A stretch of 64,000 bases of DNA from a virus (Duplodnaviria > Caudoviricetes): IMG/VR virus record IMGVR_UViG_3300025715_000009, positions 324,269 to 388,268 of that record. The stretch is one strand, 5' to 3'. The notes beneath the pieces were generated by a model. It did no database searches. It saw only the letters and a program-made list of their open reading frames with translations, and was not told where the DNA came from. This document shows, one piece after another, positions 12,503 through 41,195 of the stretch; within the stretch, counting starts at the first letter, position 1, and every line of letters begins with the position of its first letter. The translations under genes and the position numbers were made by a program.

Positions 12503-12543
12503 TTTTTTCTCCTTCTACACCTCCCCTCCCATACATCATATAT

Positions 12544-12617
12544 TAGCCTGGGTGGGATTCGAACCCACACTGTACGCATTTTGAGTGCGTCGCCTCCTGC
12601 CGTTGGGCTACCAGGCC
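12544..12617 (-). tRNA. tRNA-Leu(CAA), short variable loop
   Basis: GGCCTGG...ACGCA CT CAA AA TGCGT ACAGT GTGGG TTCGAAT CCCAC CCAGGCT A. Confidence 0.9.
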
Positions 12618-13584
12618 ATAAATTGGGCCTTGAAGGCCCAACTATATTTAACTTTCAAACATTTCTTCTAATTCATCAATATCAAACTGTTTATTTACAC
12701 AGTTAATATGGTTGTTTTTTGCTCCTCCATCTTTGATAAACTTTTTAGATCGGAACTTGTTCTGCTTATTTTTTGCCTTATTCTCTAGTCGTGCCCGATC
12801 TTCCCAAGTGCGCTTCATACTTTCTCCTTATGCAAAAATATCTAATTTAGTTCCACAATATACTGGGATAATACCCCTAACATATTCTGTTGTTTCAATT
12901 ACTATGCCATGATCAGTTTCTTTTATCTGTTTAACTTCAATAAATTCTGTTGCCCTGATCTCTTTAATATATGCTCTATATCTCCTTTCCTCTTTTAATT
13001 CCTTGATGGCCATTTATCACCACCTGGTAATTGTGCCAGATATTCATAATGTCTTTCAATCTCTTTTTGTGCAATTTCTATCCTATCCTCAAACACCTCC
13101 TGATACTCTGGTGAAAGCATTTCAACAAACATATTCATTACTAAATTAATAGTAATATCACATTCATCATCAGTCATATCAGAGTTATAGATAGCATGTA
13201 GAAAAGAATGGATAACCACATCCATAGCATCTATTTGAGCATTATCCATTTAACAACCTCTTGGCTAAAAATCGATTTAATTTATCTTTCATATAATGAT
13301 CTGTATATGGGCGAGAATTTAAAATATATGCTAAATCAATGTTTAAAAGGAATACTTGTTTCTCTTTGTAATAAATAGGATTGATATCATCATATGTTAT
13401 TGATTTCTTGGCATTATTGATAAAAAAACCATCAGCAAACACACGATTATCAGTGAATATATTGCTAGTGTGCATTATTTCAAGATTAAAAACAATATAA
13501 ATAACATCACCATCTTTTGAAGAGTGGACTAGCCATTTGTTGAGGATTTGATTTTCTAGACGTTGGTAAAAAGTTCTGGCCATA

Positions 13585-25708: not shown

Positions 25709-26353
25709 CTACTCATAATATTTCATCCAATCTGTAGAATATTTTGTTTTTAGCTTTTCAAGATAAGAATTTGTTTTAATCTTACACATCCATACCTTGC
25801 CTCTAAAAGCACCACTCTTTTCTCTTCCTTTGCAAATTACTCCTTCATTTACACTAAACTCATTCTCTCTTACCCTGTTGATAAAATCATCAGTTAAATT
25901 GCCTTCATAAATCACTCTTGGTGTAGGTACTATGCCTAATAATTTATTAGCTACTTTGACAAACTCTTGAGGCATTAAAAATTCTGTCCATTGGCTTTTA
26001 ATTAAGAGGATATCAAACATGACAAATCGCATCTTATCAATTGGGTCGCTATGAAAACCAGCAAATGAATTTGGGCCTACATACTCACCAAAAACAACTA
26101 TTTCTTTATCTTTAGGATAAAATTTGCGGAAATACTCTTCTAGTGGTTCTTTGCAAGTTGAATTAAAGACATTGACTACTCCACCTAAAATTGGATGAGA
26201 AGAGTCAATAAGTTGTGTTCTACTTCCAAATAAGTCAAATCCTCTTTTAGAAGTATATTTGACTCTTATATTACTCCCATCAAGCTTTTCAAAAGCTATC
26301 ATTTGTTTTCTGGGGGCTCTGGAAGAATTAATAATGGAAGGATACTCTATCAT
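25709..26353 (-). CDS. RNA ligase (Rnl2-like nucleotidyltransferase)
   Basis: EKLDGSN motif I, VFGEY, FDI, EGVIC, CKIK. Confidence 0.85.
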   Translation of the reverse strand: MIEYPSIINSSRAPRKQMIAFEKLDGSNIRVKYTSKRGFDLFGSRTQLIDSSHPILGGVVNVFNSTCKEPLEEYFRKFYPKDKEIVVFGEYVGPNSFAGFHSDPIDKMRFVMFDILLIKSQWTEFLMPQEFVKVANKLLGIVPTPRVIYEGNLTDDFINRVRENEFSVNEGVICKGREKSGAFRGKVWMCKIKTNSYLEKLKTKYSTDWMKYYE

Positions 26354-26434
26354 ATAATCTCCTTTATCGGCCTAAGATAGCGAAGATTATATTTTTGAAC
26401 TGCACTGGATTCGAACCAGTGACCCACGCCTTAA

Positions 26435-27097
26435 CTTACTACTTTCAGTTTCCTGAACCATCTTTCAATGTTGTAGTCTGGACTTTATCTTCATCGTTTT
26501 CAAGAGGTACGATGTCTTGCGTAAAGTCTCTGAGGAACCTATCAATACCATATTCTTCAATAAAATTTATTCCAGTTTTTTGATTATTCTTTGGTTGATT
26601 CATTCTTATACTAAAGCCACTTTCTTTTTTACAAGCTTCATTAGAAGAAATCCATACAATTTTTTCATTAAATGGATTATAAATTGCAAACCAATCAACA
26701 TCTTTTTCTGAATAAGTATATCTATATCCATTTGGACCAGATTTTTGAAGACGAAGTAGAACTTTTTCTTCATTACTTCCAGAATATTTTATTTGAATTT
26801 TTTTAAAATCCCCGATTTTTCTGCAATTAAATCAATCTTAGAATAATCACCAATTTCTGCAAAAACATTAAATTCATGTTTTTGTAATTCTAATACAACT
26901 GAAGAATATGCTATATTTCCTTTATGTTTTGTATGCATATAATAATATATGCTTAGGAAATCTAGTTTCCTGCGGATTGCCCAATCTTTTTGATTTTTAC
27001 TAGTTGCATAGTACAAAAAGCTCTAAGGGGTTTCCCGCATATAGCAAGATCCAGTATTTAGATTAAACCTCCTTTTTCTAAATACGCTCTTAATTTA
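26435..27097 (-). mobile_element. group I intron (663 nt) with endonuclease ORF in the P6 loop
   Basis: P ATGCGGGAAA, Q AATCCGCAGG, R TCAGAGACT, S AAGATAAAGTCC, P3 TCTTGC/GCAAGA, terminal G; IGS TTAAGAG pairs both exons. Confidence 0.92.
26445..26938 (-). pseudogene. intron-encoded PD-(D/E)XK homing endonuclease, frameshifted
   Basis: 494 nt versus 495 nt for the intact paralog; one A missing in the run at 26798-26804, and IQIKY... continues in the -1 frame. Confidence 0.85.
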
Positions 27098-27139
27098 AAG
27101 GGCGTTGCTCTACCATCTGAGCTAGCAGTCCAATAATAC

Positions 27140-27436
27140 TTAGTCTATAATTTCCTTGGAACGAACACCATAATCATGACCAATGTAATCAACTTTATAT
27201 TGCTTGCCATTTTCATTGGTGATAATGATTGTAAAGTTCCCAGTAGTAGAATCATCGCTAATATAGGCTTTAGCCTTAATTGTTTCGATTACCTGACCAG
27301 TGCGGGTATTCTCAATGACAATTTCACGATACAACCCACCACCAAAGTCAGATTTAACATTCTTGATGGTTTGTTGAAAAGACATCCCACAAGAAGTTAA
27401 CATTGCTACTAGAACTAGAACAACCATTTTCTTCAT
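27140..27436 (-). CDS. putative small lipoprotein
   Basis: MKK...LTSC lipobox. Confidence 0.6.
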   Translation of the reverse strand: MKKMVVLVLVAMLTSCGMSFQQTIKNVKSDFGGGLYREIVIENTRTGQVIETIKAKAYISDDSTTGNFTIIITNENGKQYKVDYIGHDYGVRSKEIID

Positions 27437-27629
27437 TTTATTCTCCTTTTGTTTTTAAAATATTTCCATATATTTGGCATTATTTTAAATATAATACCTC
27501 CTATTTTATAGGATATTATATTATTCCAAGACCCAACTTTACACATATGACAATCTGCATCAAATTCATGATGTATTGAACAAATTGAGAACCATTCTTT
27601 TTTCCAAAATAATTTACCTTTTGTCATAT

Positions 27630-27784
27630 TGAAGAAAGAAGGACTTGAACCTTCAACCGGATTACTTCATCTTTCTTAATAATATATTGATTGATTTCAT
27701 GGTACCATCCACCAATCTCAAAAAAGATAGATTTTTCATCTGCCGCATTTCCAAATGCCGTCTTTGCCATTTGACCATTTCTTC
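27630..27784 (-). ncRNA. tRNA-like RNA with a ~85-nt extra arm and non-canonical anticodon loop
   Basis: GAAGAAA/TTTCTTC acceptor, D arm, GCATTT-GG-AAATGC hairpin, long internal stem, GAAGG TTCAAGT CCTTC T arm. Confidence 0.6.
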
Positions 27785-27790
27785 ATTTTA

Positions 27791-28091
27791 TAGCCGGAGA
27801 GGGACTTGAACCCTCACGCCTTTGCAGGCAGGAGATTTTCTTACCACTATAGTTTTCACTACCATCTTTCAATGTTTGTGGTCTGGACTATATCTTCACC
27901 ATATCATTTCTGATTTAGGTGGTTGGCTCATAGTCTCTACACACGCCCAGAAGATTTCTCTTCTTGCTTGGCTCGGGGTTGGGTCGCATTTGCAGGCCAT
28001 TCTCCGAATTCGCCAACATTCACTTAGAAGTTTCCAATCTAAGTGCTCAAATAGTTAAAGTCTCCGGTGTCTACCATTCCACCATCCGGCC
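27791..28091 (-). tRNA. tRNA-Leu(UAA), class II, with a group I intron at 34/35
   Basis: GGAGA CTT | AAAA TCTCC, long variable arm, GAGGG TTCAAGT CCCTC. Confidence 0.92.
27840..28057 (-). mobile_element. group I intron (218 nt, no ORF), trnL(UAA)-type position
   Basis: P AATTCGGAGAA, Q AACCCCGAGC, R GTAGAGACTA, S AAGATATAGTCC, IGS TTTGAG, terminal G. Confidence 0.92.
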
Positions 28092-28213
28092 ATATATACT
28101 GTTTGATTGTTTAGCTCAAACAGTAAAGCATTCTATTTGATTAAGGTTCAAATAGCAAAACCTTTGAACCAGGCGGGACTCGAACCCACATAGACCTTAC
28201 GGTCACAGATTAA

Positions 28214-28876
28214 CTTACTACTTTCAGTTTCCTGAACCATCTTTCAATGTTGTAGTCTGGACTTTATCTTCATCGTTTTCAAGAGGTACAATGTCTTGCG
28301 TAAAGTCTCTGAGGAACCTATCAATACCATAATCATCAATTGATCTTACATTCTTTTTCTGTTTGTTTTTAACAGGATTTATACGTATATTAATCCCAGT
28401 ATTATATTTACAAACTTCTTTTGCTTTTACCCAAGCTATTTTTTTTGAATATAGATGATACACGGCAAACCAATCTACATCTTTTGATTTGTATGTATAT
28501 CTATATCCATTAGGTCCAGATTTTTTTATGTTTATAAAAACATAATCTTTAACGTATCCAACATATTTAATTTGAATTTTTCTTAATTCACCGCCCTTTT
28601 CTGCTATCAAATCAATTTTGGATACATCACCTAATTCTGAAAAAACATTAAAACCATTTTCTTGTAAAATCAAGACAACTGATGATTGTGCTATATTTCC
28701 TTTATGTTTTGTATGCATATAATAATATATGCTTAGGAAATCTAGTTTCCTGCGGATTGCCCAATCTTTTTGATTTTTACTAGTTGCATAGTACAAAAAG
28801 CTCTAAGGGGTTTCCCGCATATAGCAAGATCCAGTATTTAGATTAAACCTCCTTTTTCTAAATACGCTCTTAATTA
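28214..28876 (-). mobile_element. group I intron (663 nt), second copy
   Basis: Ribozyme segments almost identical to 26435..27097. Confidence 0.92.
28224..28718 (-). CDS. intron-encoded PD-(D/E)XK homing endonuclease (I-Ssp6803I/PDDEXK_5-like)
   Basis: MHTKHKGNIA...G..V...GD....DLI......RKIQIK...VDWFAVY; ATG start at 28718 preferred over the track's GTG. Confidence 0.85.
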   Translation of the reverse strand: MHTKHKGNIAQSSVVLILQENGFNVFSELGDVSKIDLIAEKGGELRKIQIKYVGYVKDYVFINIKKSGPNGYRYTYKSKDVDWFAVYHLYSKKIAWVKAKEVCKYNTGINIRINPVKNKQKKNVRSIDDYGIDRFLRDFTQDIVPLENDEDKVQTTTLKDGSGN

Positions 28877-29086
28877 AAGTCTGTTGCACAGCCTTTGTGC
28901 CACTGGTCCTAGTTAAGAATCTTGTTTAATAACTCCTGGGAATAAATAGTTGCTAGATAAGTATAATTCTTGTCATAGAGCCGAAAGACATCCCATTGCT
29001 TTGTTCCTTGAGCAGTACATACTTCAATAATATATCCATTAATATGCTTTACTTCTCTTACTTGACTCATTTATTACCTCGCATCT

Positions 29087-29757
29087 TTATATATGCTTAT
29101 TAATAAGATTATTTTTAATAATCTCTTGATTAAACCAATGAACATTGGTTTGAATATGGTTTGGTCTAACCCATTTTACTACACTCTTTCCCCAATCAAT
29201 AAGATCAATCTCATCAGCTAAACGCATTACAAAACCTTCTTGATTATTACGTAATGTATTTGGCAAAGCTTTAATCAATAATTCATCAAAAATACCATCA
29301 TAAAGAACAGGCACTGTAGAAATATCTAATTGTCTTGCAATTTCTATAGTTTCATCCCAATTAAAACACAGTTGTTTTTCCCATACATTGAACAATAAAA
29401 AATAAGATTCAAGATCTTGATAATGGATTGAATGTTTAGCATATAAATTTTCTCCACAAAGTCTAAATCCAATATGTTTCAAATCATCTGGCATTTTATC
29501 AGCTGTTTTTATAGAAAATGCAGTTACCCAATGTCTTGAAGGATGATTACAGGAATCAATAGATCTTGCGTGACATATTCCACTTGGATAAATGGTTGTA
29601 TTTTCGCCATCCATTTTTTCTGTAATAACAACTCTTTTCCCTATAAATGCAGAAAGATCATGTTGCACCTTATCATCATTACTTTTCCCTGGAGACCATG
29701 GAAGATGAAAGGTTTTTGGATATTTAGTATACAAGGTTCTTGGATATTCTTCATGCA
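29087..29757 (-). CDS. RNA ligase family nucleotidyltransferase
   Basis: KYPKTFHLPWS, TEKMDGEN, CGEN, EGFVMR, KWVR. Confidence 0.85.
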
Positions 29758-29774
29758 TAGTATTAAAAAACGAT

Positions 29775-29878
29775 GAGGTTGCTTTTATAATTGTTGCCAC
29801 CTCCCAAATCAATCAATATCTGTTATATAAAAACTAGGGTTGCTTTTATAATTGTTGCTACCCTAAATCAACCAATGT
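29775..29878. repeat. two tandem ~42-bp hairpin repeats, 61-bp period
   Basis: GGTTGCTTTTATAATTGTTGC(C/T)ACC...AAATCAA.CAAT at 29777 and 29838. Confidence 0.85.
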
Positions 29879-32297: not shown

Positions 32298-32744
32298 TCA
32301 ATTTCTTCTTTCCATCTTTTATGAAATGATTCTTCACCATCATCACCACTTAAAAGCCAATCAATTCTACCAACCATAAGAGATGCTTTTTTTAATATAT
32401 CAATTGTTTCTCTAAATTTAGCCAATGTTTCTGATGAGAAATTTTGACTAAATCCAAATTCATCTACTTTATTATTTTTCTCTATTGCTCTTTCTATTTC
32501 GTCTGCTATATCTGTTAATCTATATTGATTGTAATCAAAGTAACCACCGCTCATATTATTCTCCTTTAGAAGAAATATGCTTTTCGTTATACTCCTTTAC
32601 TTGATCAATCAAATAATCCATAAAATGAAATCCATGTAATTTTTGGAGTTTTATCAACTCCTCTTCAATATGTTTGAGCATGTCTTTGTCCATCACACCT
32701 CCTTTTTTTTAATAATATATCTTGCAAAAAAGAAGAGAGAAAAT

Positions 32745-32818
32745 TAGCCCTCTTGGGATTTGAACCCAAATTTATACGGTCTAAACGTATTGACTCTGCC
32801 AAATTGGTCTAGAGGGCC
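32745..32818 (-). tRNA. tRNA-Leu(UAG), short variable loop
   Basis: ATACG TT TAG AC CGTAT AAAT TTGGG TTCAAAT CCCAA; A73. Confidence 0.88.
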
Positions 32819-32830
32819 AAAAGATTTAAA

Positions 32831-34223: not shown

Positions 34224-34228
34224 AAGTA

Positions 34229-34303
34229 TACCCTCAGTGAGATTCGAACTCACACTGTATAGGTTCTTAGCCTATTGCCATCTACCAGTTGGGCTATGAG
34301 GGC
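34229..34303 (-). tRNA. tRNA-Leu(AAG), short variable loop
   Basis: ATAGG CT AAG AA CCTAT ACAGT GTGAG TTCGAAT CTCAC; A73. Confidence 0.88.
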
Positions 34304-34543
34304 ATGTCTTCAAGCATTAATCTATATTGAATATGATGACCAAAAGAATCTTCGGTTATCCATTCTTTTTTATCTATTTTTAATTTATCAGCAAAAAAAT
34401 CTGTTAAAAAAACAAAAGCCTCTTTTGTATTTGTTATTTTTATTGATTCTGTTTTTTCTTCTGTTGAGGAATAAAACAGATGATAAGTCTTTTTTTCCTT
34501 TTTAATAATCAAACCATTTTCAGCTTCATAAATCTCCATTAAC

Positions 34544-35774: not shown

Positions 35775-35976
35775 TTTTTCCCCTATAGATTAATTTTTCT
35801 AATTTTAGCTTTTCCACAAATTTTACAACGTGAAATTTGTTTTAAATATCTTCCTGTGGGAAAATTTGTACTATTTCCAAAACCATCACCATATAACGCG
35901 GTAATTCCTACGTCTTGCCATTCTCCGTATTTATGGAAATGAAGCTTCATTTTTAAACCTCCAAATGTTTTTTTTA

Positions 35977-36051
35977 TGCTCCTAGAGGGATTCGAACCCT
36001 CACTTGATAGTTTTTGAAACTATTGCCATCTGCCAGTTGGGCTATAGGAGC
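35977..36051 (-). tRNA. tRNA-Leu(CAA), short variable loop
   Basis: ATAGT TT CAA AA ACTAT CAAGT GAGGG TTCGAAT CCCTC; A73. Confidence 0.9.
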
Positions 36052-36056
36052 AAATA

Positions 36057-38895: not shown

Positions 38896-38969
38896 TGAAC
38901 CTAGTAGGATTTGAACCTACAACCTTCGGGTTAAAAGCCCGTCGATCTACCAGATTGATCTATAGGTCC
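38896..38969 (-). tRNA. tRNA-Lys(UUU), intronless
   Basis: ACGGG CT TTT AA CCCGA; G2.U71. Confidence 0.93.
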
Positions 38970-39214: not shown

Positions 39215-39288
39215 TAGTGACGAGTGGACTCGAACCACTGCATAACTGGTTTATGGGACCAGGGCATTACCTTCTTTGCTACGTCACC
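39215..39288 (-). tRNA. nested tRNA with anticodon CAU (Met/Ile2), C33
   Basis: GGTGACG...CTGGT CC CAT AA ACCAG...AGTGG TTCGAGT CCACT CGTCACT A. Confidence 0.85.
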
Positions 39289-39965
39289 AAATAATCTAAG
39301 ATAGACTTTCCATTTTTTATTGCATTAATTTCTTTTCTTTTTAAAACAATCAATTTTTCATTAAACTGGCTCCATTTTGCTTTATCTTTTTCAGTTTCAT
39401 ATCCTTTAACTTCTATATAAATATTTAAATTTTCTATATAAAAATCAGGATAATAAATCTTATTTTTATTATGAAATAAATAAGTAAATCCCGTTGGTTT
39501 TTTAGGAATAATATTATTTTTTCTTAATTCATAATAGACTAATTCCTCCCATGATCCCAATAATCCAAATCCATCAATTTCTTTATATTTTACATATCCT
39601 CTGTTATATCTACCAGAATATTGTTCAGCTTTTTCTATAGCAACTTTTTTCATTGATTTAGAGATTTTTTCTTTTGTTTCATCAGATAAACTTTTACCTT
39701 TTAATTGATGAATAATTTCTCCACTTTTGTATTTTTCTTTTAATGTATCAGAACATTTCTTATGCCAATTAGGATGTTCATTTTGCCAATCCTTAGAAAA
39801 ACAACCTTTCACTTTTGAATAAGATTCTGGGTGTTCTTTATGTGCTTTTTTTCCTCCTTCTGAATTTTTCTTTTTAGCTTCATCTGTTTTTGGATAGCAT
39901 GAGTTACAATAGCCAGTAATAGAAGAATCAGAAATTTCTTTATAACAATTTTTACAAAATTTCAT
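39279..39965 (-). CDS. homing-type endonuclease (Zn finger, NUMOD3, TnsA-like PD-(D/E)XK)
   Basis: CKNC...C..C, LSDETKEKIS, SWE, YYPDFY...YIEVKG; stop codon lies inside the nested tRNA. Confidence 0.8.
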   Translation of the reverse strand: MKFCKNCYKEISDSSITGYCNSCYPKTDEAKKKNSEGGKKAHKEHPESYSKVKGCFSKDWQNEHPNWHKKCSDTLKEKYKSGEIIHQLKGKSLSDETKEKISKSMKKVAIEKAEQYSGRYNRGYVKYKEIDGFGLLGSWEELVYYELRKNNIIPKKPTGFTYLFHNKNKIYYPDFYIENLNIYIEVKGYETEKDKAKWSQFNEKLIVLKRKEINAIKNGKSILDYLVT

Positions 39966-40451: not shown

Positions 40452-40487
40452 AAAAACTTGGGCCGGGTAGGACTCGAACCTACGGTA

Positions 40488-40573
40488 TGGGGAGTGAAGG
40501 AATCGAACCTCTTCGCCGCCACCTACCTTTTATATGACAAGTGATTTACAGTCACCCGGCAGGAACACTCCCC
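40488..40573 (-). tRNA. nested atypical tRNA-Tyr(GUA) with reduced D arm and enlarged variable arm
   Basis: GGGGAGT/ACTCCCC; GGTGA CT GTA AA TCACT; bulged T stem with TTCGATT loop. Confidence 0.65.
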
Positions 40574-41085
40574 GTAATAATTTTGCCATTTTTTACATAA
40601 TAAAATTTTTTCCAAGAATCTCCTATATAATCTTGCATATTTACTAGCTTATCAAATTTAAGAACCCCTGAATGAACTAGTCTATGACAATTTGGGCAAA
40701 GATATGTTAAATTACTCATCTCATCAGTTCCGCCCTTTTTCTTTTCAACAATATGATGTACATCACAAGATACATTAACAACATACCATCCACAAAAAAA
40801 ACATGGCAATTCCATTCTTCTTAAAATTTTCATAACAGTTCTTTTGCTTAAATCCATAATTGAAGTTACTTCTGTTTCTCTTACATAAGAAGCATGTTTT
40901 TCTTTATTCTTTTTTTGCCTCTTTTGTTCTAATGTTAAGCCATCTTTTCTTAACTTTTTAGAAACTTTTTTATTTATTTCTTTTCTTTTTTCTTTTGTAC
41001 TAAACCCCCTAGCACATGTAGAAGAACAAAATCTTCTTGACCCATAAGAACCATCATGCTCTTGTCCACAATTTTCACATTTCAT
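40552..41085 (-). CDS. HNH endonuclease
   Basis: Start MKCENCG; CFFCG...DVHHI....GG..E.SNL..LCPNCH; stop codon lies inside the nested tRNA. Confidence 0.88.
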   Translation of the reverse strand: MKCENCGQEHDGSYGSRRFCSSTCARGFSTKEKRKEINKKVSKKLRKDGLTLEQKRQKKNKEKHASYVRETEVTSIMDLSKRTVMKILRRMELPCFFCGWYVVNVSCDVHHIVEKKKGGTDEMSNLTYLCPNCHRLVHSGVLKFDKLVNMQDYIGDSWKKFYYVKNGKIITGSVPAG

Positions 41086-41195
41086 ATTCGAACCCCCTAA
41101 GATATATTTATCTTTACAGTTAGTTCGAATACAGTTAATTTTATTATAAAATTTACAGTCTCTTGCCTTCGCCGCTAGACTACCGACCCATAATA

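Follow-up and report, generated by a model that had tools for sequence, protein, structure and literature searches.

The window analyzed here, a stretch of 64,000 nt, is the final 64 kb of a phage record in IMG/VR (IMGVR_UViG_3300025715_000009, positions 324,269 to 388,268). The record is 388,268 bp in length, is rated 98% complete, has a G+C content of 29.7% and 64 tRNA genes, and derives from sludge and anaerobic digesters. Two tRNA genes in the window, each with the anticodon UUU, are interrupted at position 34/35 by group I introns of 663 nt that are termed copy A and copy B. Each intron includes an open reading frame (ORF) for a homing nuclease, HE-A and HE-B, respectively. Both introns, their host tRNA genes and the nuclease ORFs are located on the minus strand, and coordinates are window positions. 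The features of the two copies are as follows.

28909..28165, minus strand: host tRNA gene of copy B (sequence reading and ARAGORN)
28909..28877, minus strand: exon 1 of copy B, ending C32-U33-U34
28876..28214, minus strand: group I intron of copy B, 663 nt, first nucleotide U, last nucleotide omega-G
28873..28867, minus strand: internal guide sequence (IGS) UUAAGAG of copy B, with P10 part UUAA and P1 part GAG (read directly)
28718..28224, minus strand: HE-B, an intact ORF of 164 aa, PDDEXK_5 (I-Ssp6803I family), in the P6 loop
28332..28688, minus strand: diverged core of copy B, ORF nucleotides 31-387
28290, minus strand: U of a U.G pair in P8 of copy B
28213..28165, minus strand: exon 2 of copy B, comprising U35-U36-A37-A38, the anticodon stem, a long variable arm of 4 bp with a GUAA loop, the T arm and A73
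27131..26396, minus strand: host tRNA-Lys(UUU) gene of copy A (sequence reading and ARAGORN)
27131..27098, minus strand: exon 1 of copy A (sequence reading and ARAGORN)
27097..26435, minus strand: group I intron of copy A, 663 nt, beginning with U and ending with G
27093..27087, minus strand: IGS UUAAGAG of copy A (read directly)
26938..26445, minus strand: HE-A, a PDDEXK_5 ORF broken by the loss of 1 nt
26804..26798, minus strand: A7 run of HE-A (UUUAAAAAAA context), the point of frame loss
26553..26908, minus strand: diverged core of copy A (alignment to copy B)
26434..26396, minus strand: exon 2 of copy A, with an ordinary short variable loop

Both split tRNA genes were found in the genome by ARAGORN when run with its intron option, and the program called tRNA-Lys(UUU) for both products when the introns were excised in silico. 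The register CUU/...G/UUAA is the only one that satisfies a U at position -1, a G at omega, and a loop of 7 nt. The IGS 5'-UUAAGAG-3' starts 3-4 nt inside each intron. Its GAG forms base pairs with C32-U33-U34, of which the one at U34 is G.U, and its UUAA pairs with U35-U36-A37-A38 of exon 2. The P1 and P10 hallmarks of group I introns, namely U-1 in a G.U wobble, an omega-G and a guide that pairs with the 3' exon, are present in both copies. The initial annotation had proposed two 663-nt group I introns at 34/35, with the anticodon fixed as UUU by the guide pairing. ARAGORN, the splice-site rules and the covariation described below agree on the introns and their site, and the pairing is present in both copies. 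During splicing, the pre-tRNA would fold so that GAG holds C32-U33-U34 in P1 with U34.G as a wobble pair, exogenous G would attack 3' of U34, and the UUAA part of the guide would align the 3' exon in P10 with displacement of the omega-G. The outcome would be restoration of the loop CUUUUAA and of the anticodon UUU.

The ribozyme fold was assessed in an alignment of 11 related introns from which the ORF was removed. Compensatory changes were evident in P3, P4, P6/P6a, P7, P8 and P9.1, nearly all pairs were formed in 100% of the introns, and two to four pair types were present at many helix positions. The Lys introns possess the P3-P9 helices of the group I core, including the P7 helix that binds G, with covariation in support. 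With Rfam model RF00028, the score was 22.7 bits (E 0.008) for the 3' part of copy A (P3'-P9) and ~16 bits for the P4-P6 part of each copy. A further intron-bearing gene lies between the two copies.

27792..28090, minus strand: tRNA-Leu(UAA) gene with an ORF-less group I intron of 218 nt at 28057..27840, site 34/35, IGS UUUGAG

The Leu(UAA) intron scored 58.4 bits with RF00028, and its J8/7-P7'-P9 stretch is almost identical to that of the Lys introns. Contig records that join 27816 to 28067 were considered as a spliced form of this gene and were rejected, being intronless tRNA-Leu genes of other organisms. In the Lys introns, the P2 loop (AAGGAGG, 28849..28834, minus strand) is complementary to the P8 loop (ACCUCUU, 28289..28279, minus strand), and complementary loops occupy the same places in the introns at loci L009-L012 and L045. 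The loops co-vary, as AAGAU/AUCUU in L011 and as AAGGAGUA/UACUCCUU, a match of 8 nt, in L012. In shuffle controls the L2-L8 pairing (GGAGG/CCUCU) was significant for L012 and L009 only and was weak for most sequences. A loop-loop contact that substitutes for the tetraloop-receptor contact of other IC3 introns may exist; the pattern is suggestive and we make no claim for it.

The two introns are real and probably active members of a known intron class, and we infer that both are spliced. If the inserts instead were dead relics, neither would be spliced and both interrupted genes would be tRNA pseudogenes, tolerated by virtue of two tRNA-Lys(CUU) genes and one intact tRNA-Lys(UUU) gene, as follows.

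38969..38896, minus strand: third tRNA-Lys(UUU) gene, intronless (tRNA search)

The redundancy of Lys tRNAs in the phage fits with this proposal, as do the broken nuclease gene of copy A and the abundance of nuclease-disrupted tRNA genes in the tRNA region. However, both copies retain all core helices, the G.U pair at the 5' splice site, the omega-G and P10, the sole ribozyme substitution preserves pairing, both spliced products are well-formed tRNAs, and the region is invariant across strains. The pseudogene explanation is unlikely on these grounds.

HE-B matched Pfam family PF11645 (PDDEXK_5) with 75.2 bits (cut-off 26.1; E 6.8e-21) over 136 of the 138 profile positions, and matched I-Ssp6803I (PDB 2OST) with an E-value of 1.4e-4. 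The protein has 76 homologs at 38-66% identity. In 30 family members, HE-B among them, residues D36, E40, Q49 and K51 of the catalytic D...(E/Q)xK motif do not vary, and we infer that the intact protein is an active nuclease. The ORF is located in the loop closed by P6/P6a, and its final ~40 codons double as P6', J6/7, P7, P3', P8, P7', P9 and P9.1. Because these codons overlap the ribozyme core, the C-terminal motif LRDFTQ...DKVQTTT is found throughout the family.

The HE-A gene is interrupted by a frameshift that was missed in the initial annotation. The first frame comprises 49 codons followed by a stop (26791..26789), beyond which the remaining 117 codons can be read in the -1 frame up to the stop codon that HE-B also uses. 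When read through the break, HE-A aligns with HE-B without gaps. The break is due to one base missing from the A-run, between catalytic residue E40 and the Q49-x-K51 motif. The frameshift was seen in three assemblies. A sister-strain contig, at a depth of only 2, has one extra base in the run, two synonymous changes and an open HE-A frame. Loss of one base after recombination would be the expected decay of a homing nuclease gene once its target sites are occupied. The frame is lost at AUU UUA AAA AAA UUC (26812..26798, minus strand). The canonical slippery heptamer for -1 frameshifting, U_UUA_AAA, lies within this stretch, and a slip at this point gives exactly the full 164-aa protein. The codons of the heptamer are read by tRNA-Leu(UAA) and tRNA-Lys(UUU), that is, by the intron-bearing tRNAs. 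Programmed -1 frameshifting was considered and rejected as very unlikely: no well-placed downstream structure was apparent by eye, and the sister-strain contig has one more A. The slippery heptamer is probably a coincidence atop a plain 1-nt deletion.

Alignment of the two introns revealed a mosaic pattern. The first ~188 nt are identical but for an additional A in the P1 loop of copy A, and the final 118 nt are identical but for a single position in P8 which is T in copy B (28290) and C in copy A (26511), with pairing kept as U.G in copy B. The flanks therefore have 2 differences in ~306 nt, in contrast to 116 differences in the 357 nt of the core (67.5% identity). Both the near-identity of the ribozyme parts, which had been read by eye, and the presence of PD-(D/E)XK ORFs with diverged centers, now recognizable as PF11645 members, are borne out. 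The sister-strain assembly L007 has C at the P8 position of copy B, so that the ribozymes of that strain differ by the single A only. Between the nuclease cores of A and B, synonymous divergence (dS) is about 1.0 and nonsynonymous divergence (dN) is 0.33, with a dN/dS of about 0.3.

A nuclease tree built from the core region only placed HE-B with P0002, P0003 and P0006 (loci L010 and L009), and placed HE-A with P0021, P0008, P0005 and P0004. The HE-A core is 68% identical to that of P0008 compared to ~56% identity to HE-B, and the neighbor of HE-A in the tree is a free-standing nuclease gene (L046). Judged by their positions in different clades and by a dS of about 1, the HE-A and HE-B cores are of separate ancestry. 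The ribozymes of phages that carry relatives of the nucleases are only 86-89% identical to this ribozyme irrespective of nuclease clade. On the scale of the other phages, the distance between the A and B nucleases predicts ~35 ribozyme differences, compared to the 2 that were observed. As the ribozymes of other phages are 11-14% different, the near-identity in this genome points to recombination or gene conversion and not to divergence in place. Moreover, in both copies the spacer from P6 to the ATG codon is short and lacks a Shine-Dalgarno sequence, and this spacer and the 3' junction (TATGGTATTGAT) are of the type found in L009 and L010, whereas the spacer of L045, a member of the HE-A clade, is longer and includes GGAGG. 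Copy A is therefore a B-type backbone with an A-clade nuclease core. By these comparisons the twin copies show recombination between intron modules.

The alternative is that one intron was duplicated recently, by reverse splicing or ectopic homing, and that its nuclease then diverged rapidly in place toward a new DNA target with the ribozyme held constant. The guide needs only the 7-nt loop, which is common to the three tRNA(UUU) genes, and the different anticodon stems of the two hosts would demand a changed nuclease specificity. Against this alternative, dS in the core is saturated next to flanks with 2 differences in ~306 nt, the cores belong to different clades in which each is nearer to nucleases of other phages, and divergence of 32% beside about 0.6% is not obtainable by point mutation. 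Duplication with divergence in place is already largely refuted and is highly improbable. Of the two possibilities in the initial annotation, the data support recombination or gene conversion of the ribozyme, but not independent divergence of the nucleases in place.

The host tRNAs of the two introns are dissimilar. The copy A host is a canonical (type I) bacterial tRNA-Lys with a short variable loop of 4-5 nt, the anticodon UUU and A73. The copy B host, 82 nt in length, also has UUU and A73, but includes a variable region of 15 nt with a 4-bp stem that departs from canonical tRNA-Lys and that had been overlooked. A long variable arm is typical of tRNAs for Leu, Ser and Tyr, but not for Lys. 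The nearest paralog of the copy B host (72%) is an 82-nt long-arm tRNA-Asn(GUU) at genome positions 316446-316527, outside the window. A search of viral contigs for a relative of the unusual exon 2 of copy B produced one match only, a chance match inside a protein-coding region. The anticodon stems differ among all three tRNA(UUU) genes, and the third, intronless gene has only 13-15 of the 23 bp surrounding the intron site in common with the occupied genes. This gene had been viewed as an unoccupied target, which holds at the RNA level because the loop is the same; at the DNA level the match is limited to those 13-15 bp.

Relatives of both nuclease clades reside in ordinary tRNA-Lys genes that resemble the copy A host. 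Colonization of the copy B gene by reverse splicing, for which the loop suffices, is possible, as is entry through tolerant recognition by the nuclease and microhomology repair. It is also possible that the tRNA body was replaced around a resident intron; this route is plausible because the genome carries many nuclease-plus-tRNA replacement cassettes.

Considered together, the evidence makes it likely that both inserts are group I introns of the known Lys.3Ug class, bacterial-type and IC3-like, with a PDDEXK_5 gene in the P6 loop, and that the two are mosaics of each other. The nuclease family is tied to tRNA-Lys(UUU) genes and would drive spread at the DNA level. The mosaic could have formed by either of two routes. 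In one, gene conversion from copy B replaced both flanks of an A-type intron that was already resident; in the other, a duplicated B-type intron had its core exchanged for an A-clade cassette, either intron-borne or free-standing like that at L046.

A number of points weigh against this assignment. Both Lys copies are below the Rfam gathering threshold (50 bits), a formal failure that is expected because the ORF of ~400 nt in L6 is not bridged by the model. Metatranscriptome and DNA contigs provided no joined exons for either Lys intron, a result that is uninformative either way. The two occupied sites have only 15 of 23 bp in common, which leaves colonization of the copy B gene unexplained. 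Both routes of recombination fit the data, such that the direction and number of events are not separable. Finally, Logan contigs may pop small bubbles, and short-read assemblers could homogenize near-identical repeats.

The last point is the basis for a further explanation, anticipated in the initial annotation, in which the identity of the copies is an artefact of assembly consensus and truly different ribozyme parts were homogenized in short-read assembly. The shared segments (188 and 118 nt) are longer than common k-mer sizes, and two assemblies break there: L006 ends inside copy A and L008 spans from intron B to intron A. However, breaks at shared segments are expected for true repeats. 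Over 4.2 kb including both copies, assemblies from JGI and ENA match the window at 100% identity. One NCBI assembly and another two from ENA are in agreement in the overlapping parts, amounting to five assemblies from different samples and assemblers. In the Logan contigs of one DNA run, depth over the shared segments is ~2-fold that of the unique parts, and alternative letters are absent. Homogenization is doubted also because the A indel and the C/T difference in P8 were retained and not merged. An assembly artefact is highly improbable in light of these data.

A more elaborate reading joins the ribozyme, nuclease and tRNA observations, and is offered tentatively as it is more likely to be wrong than right in full. 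The introns would share one ribozyme chassis with two nuclease cassettes: gene conversion would keep the ribozyme modules identical, and cassettes of different clades, one of which also is free-standing beside tRNA-Lys, would be swapped. The swapping would have let the intron enter the tRNA(UUU) paralog with the long variable arm, which itself may be a decoy-resistant tRNA-Lys that counters host anticodon-arm nucleases such as PARIS AriB. Host PARIS AriB cuts tRNA-Lys in the anticodon stem, and phage T5 escapes with a stem-variant tRNA-Lys (PMC11464382). An anti-defense role for the diversity of tRNA(UUU) stems is a hypothesis only. If the joint reading is true, modular retargeting of a mobile intron would be recorded here naturally and in a form open to testing, and the locus would be an early documented example of phage tRNA genes with group I introns.

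Additional features were observed in and around the tRNA region. The block of intron-bearing tRNA genes is flanked by two distinct RNA ligase genes of family PF09414, at 25709..26353 (minus strand, E 6e-15) and 29087..29812 (minus strand, E 6e-31). Ligases of this kind are used by phages for repair of cleaved tRNAs. An NCBIfam search returned nothing useful for the nuclease or for the two ligases. Just downstream of the Leu(UAA) gene, at 27785..27629 (minus strand), is a tRNA-like gene with good acceptor, D and T arms, in which 73-99 extra nt replace the anticodon arm and variable region and no group I signal was detected. At 41190..40458 (minus strand), a tRNA gene with acceptor halves GGGTCGG and CCGGCCC and the loop CTGTAAA is split by ~650 nt. 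Within the insert are an ORF for an HNH endonuclease and a second, complete tRNA gene, long-arm and tRNA-Tyr(GUA)-like, and Rfam gave no group I signal; the arrangement looks like a nuclease-plus-replacement-tRNA cassette, and not an intron. An ORF of 228 aa at 39279..39965 (minus strand), with zinc-finger and PD-(D/E)XK-like regions, abuts tRNA-Met among tRNA fragments; it is unrelated to PDDEXK_5 by eye and belongs to the nuclease/tRNA replacement cassettes of the genome. Four tRNAs with Leu anticodons (12543-12618, 32744-32819, 34228-34304 and 35976-36052, minus strand) are only 74-77 nt in length and have no long variable arm, a feature that is expected in bacterial tRNA-Leu. A tRNA with the anticodon CUA, of the amber suppressor type, is encoded at genome positions 293264-293335, outside the window, and in some of the phage genes TAG may be a sense codon.

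The intron-plus-nuclease unit is not confined to this genome. It was found in tRNA-Lys(UUU) at 34/35 in at least 10 other metagenomic or viral loci (L009-L014, L016, L033, L044 and L045). At L035 (997-1742) a related nuclease is encoded in an intron one base further on, CUUU/...G/UAA (Lys.4Ug), with the guide GAAG, and at L039 (1705-2583) in an intron of a long-arm tRNA-Leu(UAG), where the ORF is upstream of P3 and not in the P6 loop. In 13 of 32 related viral loci (L022, L023, L025-L032, L038, L040 and L046), a free-standing PDDEXK_5 gene comes after an intact tRNA-Lys(UUU) gene, 21-78 nt downstream of it, and so the nuclease family follows the tRNA-Lys gene with or without the ribozyme. The related loci were found only with the alignment as query; none was found with a single nuclease protein. 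Neither a blastn search of GenBank phages with copy B nor a search of IMG/VR for an exact 35-nt core pattern produced a match. Homing endonucleases that are free-standing and act next to or together with introns are familiar, for example from cyanophage psbA; in this window, by contrast, both nuclease genes are intron-borne.

The cyanobacterial tRNA-fMet group I intron reportedly encodes I-Ssp6803I, in work attributed to Bonocora and Shub in 2001 and to Zhao and colleagues in 2007. That intron and the Lys introns alike interrupt a tRNA anticodon loop and carry a PF11645 PD-(D/E)XK nuclease gene. They differ in that the host gene here is Lys and not fMet, the site is 34/35 and not 33/34, the setting is a phage and not a cyanobacterium, the protein similarity is distant only, and the C-terminal ~40 codons of the ORF here also form ribozyme core. 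I-Ssp6803I is a tetramer that reads 23 bp of pseudo-palindromic anticodon-arm DNA (PMC3384342). The Leu(UAA) intron of the window has the same 34/35 site after CUU and the same GAG in the P1 part of the guide, but its P10 part is UUU (for AAAA) instead of UUAA, its 218 nt include no ORF, and its P2-P6 region has diverged.

According to a review from 2014, all group I introns known in phages at that time were in protein-coding genes, despite the many tRNA genes of phages (PMC3984707). In the literature on group I introns in tRNA-Lys or phage tRNAs, only Williams 2020 (bioRxiv 10.1101/2020.01.27.920355) was found, and no case in a phage tRNA after 2014 was found. This locus and at least 10 related viral contigs show that large environmental phages commonly have tRNA-Lys(UUU) introns with nucleases resembling I-Ssp6803I. 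As a natural experiment the pair of introns is unusually clean, with the same ribozyme, different nuclease cores and three different tRNA(UUU) targets of which one is unoccupied. It allows direct tests of the specificity of the nucleases, of the exchange of cassettes and of the concerted evolution of the intron modules.

The closest known system is the Lys.3Ug class. Williams 2020 raised the number of settings for group I introns in bacterial tRNAs from 4 to 21, in a catalog drawn from bacterial and archaeal genome assemblies whose main text mentions neither endonucleases nor phages. The supplement includes the seeds Mle24.Lys.3Ug and Mpe6.Lys.4Ug, with Lys.3Ug defined as CUU/...g/UUAA. The phage introns share with Lys.3Ug the isoacceptor, the site between loop positions 3 and 4 (34/35) with Lys(UUU) as the spliced product, U-1 and the omega-G. 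By eye only, the Mle24 seed also looks alike in J3/4-P4 (UAUAUGC.GG), an extended P5, and GGG.AAUC.GCA. Although the initial annotation had suggested that Lys was a novel host, Lys(UUU) was already cataloged in 2020, the same unit is present in many other phage contigs, and no new kind of element is described here. The phage introns differ from the cataloged class in their setting, with two copies per genome in two non-homologous tRNA(UUU) genes, and what is new is the occurrence in one genome of near-identical ribozymes around clearly different homing-nuclease genes.

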